Notes: generated by a model not told the origin, from the letters alone. DNA of 64,000 nt from Nematocida ausubeli (GCF_000738915.1 NW_026515635.1:682001-746000), one strand, 5' to 3'; shown: positions 61,201 through 62,716, counted from the stretch's first letter. Numbers and translations: made by a program.

Positions 61201-61521
61201 TGATAGAGACGCATCAGAAGTAGACAAGAGTGCATTCCTCAAGCATGCTATGCAAGTGCCAAGACACAAGCTGTCTACCTCACCTACCCATCTACATACA
61301 CTTCCTTACATCAGCAGGTCTTTCTCCAGTGCCTGCTGCACATGCCTTGTACACACTCTCCCACTATATTAATTTTTCGTCATATGGCCCTCCAAGATGC
61401 ACAATTTGCACATAGACCCGGCTATACACCGCAATTAAGTAAACAAACAGCAGAACGTGGTCTAGAGTGCACTTAGAAGGGTCCAATGTACACATTTCCC
61501 AATTTGATTATTTTCTGCGGG

Positions 61522-61528
61522 TATTTAA
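61522..61528 (+). promoter_or_regulatory. TATA-like box upstream of the structured RNA island
   Basis: GGG-TATTTAA-GGG, about 25-30 nt before the first pairable segment. Confidence 0.35.
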
Positions 61529-61549
61529 GGGCCACGCACTCTGCATTTC

Positions 61550-62182
61550 AGAACACCAGGAGAGCTGCATCTGTCTCACGGCGCAGTGCAGCAGGAGAGG
61601 GCTGGCTAGGAGGTGGCAGGAGCAAGCCGGCACTAACCCTGCCGGTGGGTCGTCCACTATTATCATTCCCTTCGGGGTAGCCTATAAGGCCATATGGAGT
61701 AGCTTGGATGCCAACTTTGTCATTAGGAAATTCCGCGCATGTTCTTTTTACCTTGATGCTTGTACATTTAATATTTAGAACCGCTGCGTTGTCTAAGCCG
61801 AAGTGGCACTGAACTATGCGTGCACTGGACTTCCCTGCTCCTGTCCTCAGCACCGACTGGCCCTCTTCTCTGCGCGGCACGCGCGATGGCCTGCCGTGCT
61901 GTCTGCAGCGCTCTGGCAAACAGCAGCATGCGCGGGCCGCTGGGTTCTCAGGCCAGTCGCAAGACGCCGCTCTCCCTGCATATGCAGCAGCTAACCACTA
62001 CATGTGTATGCAGCGAGCGAAGATGTGCTGTGTGCAGGCAGTACATGGCGCCCGTACATGGCCGGTACACACTATTATTAATAAACAGCCGCTCTCGATC
62101 TGCCTGCTGTCTTGCTGTACTGTGTCCGCCCTTTGTGTGCTCAACTAATATTCCTTGTTCGCAAGCCTCGAATGGCTTTTTA
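61550..62182 (+). ncRNA. Large structured ncRNA, candidate telomerase RNA (boundaries approximate)
   Basis: GC-rich island with no credible ORF. Long-range helices contain G-U pairs that work on the plus strand only. Also a cUUCGg tetraloop, CTAACCCT at 61633-61640, a pseudoknot-type pairing and a downstream three-way junction. Confidence 0.6.
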
Positions 62183-62716
62183 TATTAAACTCTTTTACTG
62201 TGCTGCTGGTATAAATATTTTGTTTAATACGTATATTCTCTTGTGTAGTGAAAAGTGTATTTATTGAGTTTTGTAATTCAATTGCACAAAAGACATAGGG
62301 GCCTTAAGAAAAGTTTGCACCTATAAATAAAATAAGTGCCAATAGCCTGGTCTGTTTAAATACCACAGCCAATATAATAAATATTAAATTTAGCTAGGCT
62401 TTATGTCGTGTGGGGTTTTTGAGGTAGGGCTTTCGGGTTATATGCAAATTTATTTAGCGTAACTAAGCGAAAAGATACATGCACTTTCTTAGTATTGAAA
62501 ACTCTGTTTTGAAGAATAAAAGTGCTTTTAGCAGCTAATGTATGCTTAAGCCATAGATATAGTTGGGTTTAAATGGCAAGAACAGCGCAAGGAACTCTGT
62601 ATATGAAAAGATGGCCTTAGAACAGCTACTACTGCATAATTTGATTCTTTTCGACTGATCTGGATCTTTTAATTACACATAATATTCATTTGATTTTCAT
62701 TTTGTTTATTCTTTAA

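Follow-up and report, generated by a model that had tools for sequence, protein, structure and literature searches.

A GC-rich, predicted structured transcript beside the RPF1 gene of Nematocida ausubeli and its possible identity as a telomerase RNA

The DNA analysed here, a stretch of 64,000 nt (the window), encodes a Brix-domain protein that is 100% identical over 206 aa to ribosome production factor 1 (RPF1) of N. ausubeli, and every named protein among its 20 matches is from Nematocida. Judging from these matches, the window is that of a microsporidian of the N. ausubeli type. The initial annotation had correctly named RPF1 as the left neighbour of the region studied. The right neighbour encodes a membrane and coiled-coil protein; its earlier label, LEM, gained no support from Pfam, in which the gene (62717 onward) had no significant family. 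Tandem repeats of 24, 48 and 120 nt at 63615-64000 encode the charged coiled-coil of this protein. The minus strand of 58505-58906 has an open frame, 133 codons from stop to stop, whose start is hydrophobic and signal-like and which contains 21-nt repeats; it probably encodes a small secreted protein. Between RPF1 and the right-hand gene lies the only GC-rich spacer of the window. Its best 300-nt segment has a GC content of 0.61, and of the 22 gaps longer than 400 nt none of the remaining 21 exceeds 0.44; the description of a GC-rich island in an AT-rich gap is accurate. Another spacer, at 35308-35883, carries clustered short tandem repeats, one of them a 10-nt unit that contains words resembling TATTTAAG.

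Of 22 listed sequencing runs, four were aligned (X13, X14, X16 and X20), representing two samples. X20 is on record as rRNA-depleted RNA; the other three come from a single sample, of guessed or unrecorded type, and behave as RNA, in that their contigs over the flanking genes start at 59835-38 and 62719-41, at both start codons. In each of the four runs a single contig lies on the island and does not extend past it, and the spacers on either side lack coverage; uncovered spacers prove nothing alone and were weighed jointly with the CDS-bounded flanking contigs. The range proposed earlier, 61520-62185, is too wide, taking in a promoter-like region and downstream DNA around a transcript that spans at most the interval given in the table below. 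A plus-strand transcript had also been predicted; the transcript is present in all four runs, but its strand, on which the contigs carry no information, is assigned to plus because a TATA-GGG element precedes the start and AATAAA lies near the end. A scan for bacterial promoters and terminators was uninformative here. The contig ends at 62092 and 62098 fall 7 and 13 nt past AATAAA and carry 5 and 7 unaligned letters, which probably stem from a poly(A) tail. A TATA-like word with CCC or GGG near the start site has been described for microsporidian non-coding RNA genes, those of Encephalitozoon (PMC5499648). Contig depth was 301-461 on the island compared with 24-53 on the right-hand gene and at most 14 on RPF1 (21.6 compared with 4.9 in X20), which hints at an abundant RNA; contig depth cannot rank genes, and we build no argument on it. 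Upstream, at 60793-61269, a low-depth X13 contig differs from the window at 19 places and has a loose end of 129 nt preceding 60793; it represents a minor transcript and probably a strain-specific insertion or rearrangement.

Table 1. Features of the locus, in window coordinates
Feature	Position	Strand	Basis and remarks
Left neighbour, RPF1 (Brix domain)	59220..59840	-	protein match and Pfam
Likely core promoter: TATA-like TATTTAA (61522-28), then GGG (61529-31), about 30 nt before the RNA start	61519..61531	+	sequence
Transcript, about 545 nt, non-coding	at most 61555..62098	+ (from signals)	contigs
Island contigs	X14 61555-62098; X16 61562-62092; X13 61566-62070; X20 61688-62042		RNA-run contigs
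Predicted terminal helix, 5' strand, pairing with 62091-96	61560..61565	+	p 0.97; 8 of 75 shuffles close the ends equally
Predicted enclosing P1-like arm, 5' strand: 6+13 bp, then 9-10 bp; partner 61836-61875	61586..61624	+	p 0.82, 0.85, 0.96
Predicted hairpin around candidate template (GCCGGCA, CUAACCC, UGCCGGU)	61626..61646	+	-10.7 kcal/mol, z -3.09
Candidate template CUAACCCU: 6 templating and 2 alignment nt for TTAGGG	61633..61640	+	sequence
Predicted inner domain, closed by GGG-GUCCA/UGGAC-CCC	61647..61835	+	fold
Predicted enclosing arm, 3' strand	61836..61875	+	sequence pairing and fold
Predicted template-distal domain: long hairpin, with a three-way junction as an alternative that differs by no more than 1 kcal/mol	61883..61960	+	fold
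Predicted second CUAACC hairpin: 11-bp stem (p 0.99), apical loop CUAACCA (61991-97)	61968..62019	+	fold, z -2.93
AATAAA, likely poly(A) signal; the two contigs reaching furthest 3' end 7 and 13 nt past it	62080..62085	+	sequence and contig ends
Right neighbour, membrane and coiled-coil protein, continuing past the window end	62717..64000	+	ORF

The island contigs are about 1% diverged from the window, similar to RPF1 (6/639). In X13 the island shows 5 differences in 505 positions compared with 19/477 for the upstream spacer transcript (p 0.003), and in X20 it shows 6/355 compared with 15/259 for the right-hand CDS (p 0.007); in X14 the corresponding counts are 7/544 and 16/813 (p 0.40), and there the island is not better conserved. 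At least eight island variants are found among those listed, with up to two more in X14. Four fall at mostly unpaired positions and one at a half-paired position, one preserves a wobble pair, and two affect a single G-U pair, which becomes A-C in one strain; no compensatory change occurs among the eight. ATG frames lying wholly within the RNA reach at most 34 aa on the plus and 53 aa on the minus strand, in keeping with the earlier remark that there is no convincing ORF. ARAGORN detected no tRNA or tmRNA. Rfam at gathering level gave no match in the window or in the related locus described below; with E up to 10, the interval 60500-63200 gave six chance matches, none of them on the island, and 61530-62120 gave four, with E of 6.5-9.6. 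The island thus matches no other family, the outcome expected in the initial annotation, nor any telomerase model. The Rfam telomerase models are lineage-specific, so a miss weighs little. Signatures of RNase P, MRP, SRP, C/D and Sm-site RNAs were absent or incomplete in the island by motif search and Rfam. The fallback reading of the initial annotation, an unannotated large structured RNA, is borne out by the RNA contigs, by conservation between strains, by signals that resemble a promoter and a poly(A) site, and by the lack of an Rfam match, and we are confident that the island yields a real, conserved, structured transcript of no known family.

A homologue search of metagenomes returned a single locus (L001), from a relative with 67% RPF1 identity; collections of viral and prokaryotic genomes yielded no loci. 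The N-terminus of the right-hand protein is homologous to the product of the gene beside RPF1 in L001 (E 7e-06); the L001 protein differs in its repeat and contains a second membrane segment. The two head-to-head genes are 24 nt apart in L001 (9977-10000) compared with 2.9 kb here (59841-62716). The initial annotation had proposed comparing this syntenic interval in related genomes; in L001, one distant relative, no such RNA lies between the two genes, and blastn of the island against the whole locus (20.6 kb) gave nothing similar (best E 0.8). Relative to the genes at 52311-56367, the RPF1-neighbour pair is inverted in the comparison with L001, and because gene order around it has been rearranged, the gene for the RNA may lie elsewhere in that organism.

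All six pairings noted initially, the CCC-UUCG-GGG hairpin, the U-run at 61745-49 and CTAACCCT at 61633-40 are present as described. One of the pairings is contested: GCGCAG at 61581-86 can form its helix, but GUGCAG at 61586-91 competes for the same partner and is preferred by the predicted fold (p 0.82). Compared with shuffles, the fold scores z -2.41 for 61570-890, -2.17 for 61520-62185 and -2.06 for the transcript (3 of 100 shuffles as good); the reverse-strand fold of the transcript is weaker (z -1.60). Confident long-range pairs number 39 compared with a shuffle mean of 16, a value reached in 5 of 75 shuffles. Taken alone, predicted folding relative to shuffles gives modest support, and the 13-bp stem of the enclosing arm is by itself ordinary, being present in 57 of 200 shuffles. 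In the model the arm (61586-624/61836-875) leads into a three-way junction, from which emerge the hairpin at 61626-46 and an inner helix (61647-56/61826-35). The inner domain beyond it (170 nt) contains the UUCG hairpin, GGAAAUUCCGCG (61726-37), the U-run and a possible crossing helix (61734-44/61811-22), and the 3' part beyond 62019 is weakly folded. This core-enclosing helix around the candidate template and inner domain is predicted with p 0.82-1.0, and one strain variant breaks a pair in it. The strain changes in the arm are loss of the bulged C61592, one G-U to A-C, and C61873U, which keeps a wobble.

The initial annotation had proposed that the island is the telomerase RNA of this organism. 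The candidate template word CTAACCCT is unique in the window, both strands counted, and an 8-nt complement of TTAGGG repeats arises in 43 of 2000 shuffles. It amounts to 1.33 repeats; templates typically hold 1.5-2, and a 2-nt alignment region has been described for rodent telomerase RNAs (both from the accessible part of PMC4993307). Published accounts of microsporidia give TTAGGG as the repeat of Mitosporidium daphniae (one contig), Hamiltosporidium, Binucleata and Gurleya (PMC12449221, PMC10542269), whereas most others use TTAGG, TAGG or TTAG: TTAGG or TAGG in Encephalitozoon, Ordospora, Vairimorpha and Nosema, and TTAG in Glugoides and Microsporidia sp. MB (PMC12449221, PMC10542269, PMC11592040, PMC13174016). 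We found no statement of the Nematocida repeat in the literature, including the available portions of an N. parisii preprint and of PMC10393165. The window itself contains no telomeric arrays. Nematocida branches early, and from this phylogeny, together with a remark on its basal position in the part of a paper available to us, it has probably kept TTAGGG.

TERT is reported in Encephalitozoon (PMC10158259) and in Microsporidia sp. MB, so the phylum would be expected to have a template RNA as well. None is listed among 18 Encephalitozoon non-coding RNAs, and the word telomerase is absent from that microsporidian survey (PMC5499648). Literature on microsporidia and early fungi, mostly outside subscription journals, yielded no paper on a microsporidian telomerase RNA: one Nosema paper uses the phrase in a general sense, the candidate put forward for a mucoralean fungus in PMC4133162 is ciliate-like and unrelated, and the accessible part of PMC6349667 contains nothing on this RNA.

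Several hallmarks of telomerase RNAs are lacking in the prediction. The initial annotation overlooked the GCCGGCA/UGCCGGU helix that encloses the template (p 0.97). A single-stranded, accessible template is not what the fold predicts, as a 7-bp stem holds the word in its 7-nt loop; the eight template bases could be freed for 1.3 kcal/mol, the 3' flank for 12.7 kcal/mol. Given established telomerase structure, threading through TERT is not possible for a template that forms a closed loop of 7 nt; for telomerase function this hairpin must therefore open. No variant in the hairpin is listed for X13, X14 and X16, a single sample that at about 1% divergence has little power. In the pseudoknot proposed earlier, the U-run follows the 5' strand of the second stem instead of lying in the preceding loop, the junction measures 56 nt, and the two alternative helices offered cross and exclude each other. 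In telomerase pseudoknots the first loop is U-rich and the junction contains none or several unpaired nt (PMC3592445); U-A-U triples are a further hallmark. An ungapped search for the canonical geometry found seven weak cases of 10-11 bp, and such cases occur in 173 of 200 shuffles; crossing models of other geometry are possible and lie 4-9 kcal/mol above the nested fold, including a penalty of 7-9.6 kcal/mol. The predicted domain at 61883-960 stands where the CR4/5 announced by the initial annotation would follow the core, and it has a three-way alternative, but no P6.1-type stem-loop, an element of 4 bp with a NUNGN loop known from vertebrates and filamentous fungi, was found in the 3' distal domain. 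The sole 4-bp stem with a NUNGN loop is at 61645, outside it, and one arises in 1107 of 2000 shuffles. An Sm site and an H/ACA layout are likewise absent from the transcript. P6.1 is also missing from the telomerase RNAs of echinoderms and budding yeasts, but these keep a pseudoknot and a single-stranded template, unlike the predicted fold of the island (PMC4993307).

Among known telomerase RNAs, as far as the available text of PMC3592445 describes them, those of Neurospora crassa and other Pezizomycotina and of fission yeast resemble the island in having a template within nested core-enclosing helices (two in N. crassa), a distal 3' helical domain and a TTAGGG-type template. In contrast to these, the island has no separate 5' template-boundary hairpin, a single predicted hairpin clamping both flanks, and lacks an above-chance pseudoknot with a U-rich loop, P6.1 and an Sm site. 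Rodent-type vertebrate RNAs share with it a length of a few hundred nt, a P1-like arm directly before the template, an 8-nt template with a 2-nt alignment region, and the order of core, distal domain and 3' hairpins; the island differs from them in lacking the H/ACA layout, P6.1 and P2b/P3 pseudoknot geometry and in having ends that are predicted to pair (PMC4993307, in part).

As a telomerase RNA, the island would be expressed and function as follows. RNA polymerase II would initiate about 30 nt past the TATA-GGG promoter, and cleavage and tailing would follow AATAAA. In the folded RNA, the long arm would close a core containing CUAACCCU, and TERT would bind this core together with the 61883-960 domain. 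The chromosome 3' end would align on the last two template bases and six more would be copied, giving TTAGGG-type repeats; processivity would be low, as is known of alignment regions of 2 nt. The GCCGG hairpin around the template would have to be melted on assembly and would therefore act as a latch on the free RNA. This melting is the weakest link of the proposed scheme, lacking precedent in the literature consulted for telomerase RNA. The occurrence of TTAGGG in other microsporidia and the position of the template inside an enclosing helix speak for the telomerase claim, whereas the template hairpin, the lack of an above-chance telomerase-type pseudoknot and of P6.1, and the absence of the RNA at this site in L001 speak against it. 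Because three predicted features failed, namely the accessible template, the pseudoknot and P6.1, and we found no report of the Nematocida repeat, we do not assign the RNA to the telomerase class, and we put the chances that it belongs there at about even.

If the telomerase reading is right, this would be the first microsporidian telomerase RNA, one that samples the molecule at the base of the fungal lineage, and a template held in a hairpin would be a new mode of control. Microsporidian telomeric repeats shrink from TTAGGG to TTAGG to TTAG across the phylum, as the sources available in part indicate, and a Nematocida telomerase RNA would seed the search for others and show template change driving repeat shortening. 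The claim is directly testable because N. ausubeli grows in C. elegans. If the RNA is something else, a compact genome has nonetheless kept an unannotated RNA of 545 nt, roughly double the length listed for microsporidian RNase P, MRP and SRP RNAs.

The initial annotation also overlooked a second CUAACC apical loop (61991-97), for which the plain telomerase model gives no explanation. The 16-nt top of its hairpin is predicted to open for 0.8 kcal/mol, the two loop-closing pairs being weak (p 0.65). This twin arrangement suggests a different reading, a lineage-specific scaffold RNA whose CUAAC(C) loops would serve not as a template but as sites for an RNA-binding protein, or would pair with the single-stranded telomeric G-strand or its transcript. 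CUAAC is a word of the branch-point and STAR/KH type. CTAACC occurs eight times in the window, two of these in the 544-nt RNA, a doubling found in 59 of 20,000 shuffles, and both copies form apical loops; the very stable hairpin of the first loop suits display more than templating. Several points weigh against the scaffold reading: it was framed post hoc, a 6-mer common to any two of the hairpin loops turns up in 12 of 303 folded shuffles, CUAACC is also an apical loop at one of six other window sites and at the single L001 site, the second loop's closing pairs are weak as noted, and the binding protein is only putative. We regard the scaffold reading as possible but tentative. A third hairpin with a CUAACCG apical loop and a 6-bp stem lies on the minus strand at 4590-4610, in the spacer before a kinase gene at 4728.

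The same loops allow a rewired version of the telomerase reading, in which TERT would open the hairpin latch, the classical pseudoknot and P6.1 would be dispensed with, the 3' end would be polyadenylated and the second loop would dock on the chromosome end; in its boldest form, the repeat would not be TTAGGG. Two separate telomere-complementary loci, one reaching 8 nt, arise in 98 of 20,000 shuffles. A 7-nt unit fits both loops (10 nt at 61991-62000 and 8 nt at 61631-38). For the first loop, a yeast-style unit of 15 nt that has a 5-nt terminal redundancy is a further fit (61626-45). Thus the first site is a 5-nt direct repeat of period 15 and the second a 3-nt redundancy of period 7. A 5-nt direct repeat at period 15 is the form of long yeast templates, and because the repeated word at the first site is nearly palindromic, the hairpin could be its by-product. 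The loops would give three distinct telomere-repeat predictions, all of them post hoc except TTAGGG. We consider the rewired version doubtful.

If the island belonged to an mRNA whose leader is long and structured, or were transcribed from a repeated element, this would account for AATAAA and the probable tailing, and the frames from 61816 and 61886 would end at 62148 and 62188; the RNA is also missing at this site in L001, as expected of an insertion. All four contigs stop before either of these ends, however, four short ATG frames come first, and the flanking mRNA contigs begin within a few bases of their ATG (X13, X14). A repeated element is further opposed by the divergence of about 1%, which is like that of RPF1 and as expected of a single-copy orthologue, and no long terminal repeats surround the island in 59800-62750. 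Both forms of this explanation are quite unlikely.

An enlarged and diverged RNase P or MRP RNA, cleaving pre-tRNA or pre-rRNA, is suggested by GGAAAUUCCGCG, which fits what we take to be the CR-I pattern (5' strand of P4). Such a fit occurs in 6 of 2000 shuffles, the pattern having been picked after the word was seen; GGAAAUUCCGCG has a 12-bp complement at 61925-36, and the 5' and 3' ends of the RNA pair. That complement, however, lies within another hairpin, 160 nt from the 3' end, no CR-V motif was found on the plus strand by search or by eye against Encephalitozoon sequences, the enclosing arm around CR-I has no counterpart in the P/MRP fold, and neither family gave an Rfam match with E up to 10. 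Microsporidian RNase P, MRP and SRP RNAs share with the island the TATA-like word and GGG before the start and a CR-I-like word, but in the available part of PMC5499648 they are listed at 158-248 nt (the P and MRP RNAs being from Encephalitozoon and Nosema), compared with about 545 nt for the island, and those of Encephalitozoon keep clear CR-I and CR-V, the latter being absent from the island, as is the SRP helix 8. We therefore consider this assignment very unlikely.

A diverged SRP RNA or large snoRNA (U3 or snR30 type), with which the end-to-end pairing, the long irregular helices and a size near that of yeast SRP RNA (about 520 nt, from a percentage column in the part of PMC5499648 available) would agree, is very improbable, as the island has no helix-8 motif (GNRA loop, SRP54 site), which Encephalitozoon SRP RNA clearly keeps according to the same source, no box C, terminal box D, snR30 words or hairpin-H-hairpin-ACA order, its only plus-strand CUGA being internal (61809) and ANANNA at 62069 leaving no room for a second hairpin, and no Rfam match. 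A minus-strand RNA was considered and rejected; besides the weaker fold given above, its GGCUUA and CUGAGGA words have no partner elements.

An 11-letter promoter word, GGGTATTTAAG, is common to the island promoter and a spacer of L001, which shows no alignment beyond the word and folds with z -0.97 relative to shuffles. On the minus strand of L001, three tandem 18-nt units with ACTAAC lie at 7760-7830, one of which shares 11 letters with 61810-20 of the window (E 9.8), probably by chance. On the same strand of L001, at 3975-4107, a hairpin of about 100 nt (z -6.58) follows just after GGGTATTTAAG, an inverted copy of which lies near 3930-3950; the arrangement may mark a further small RNA gene or a promoter acting in both directions.
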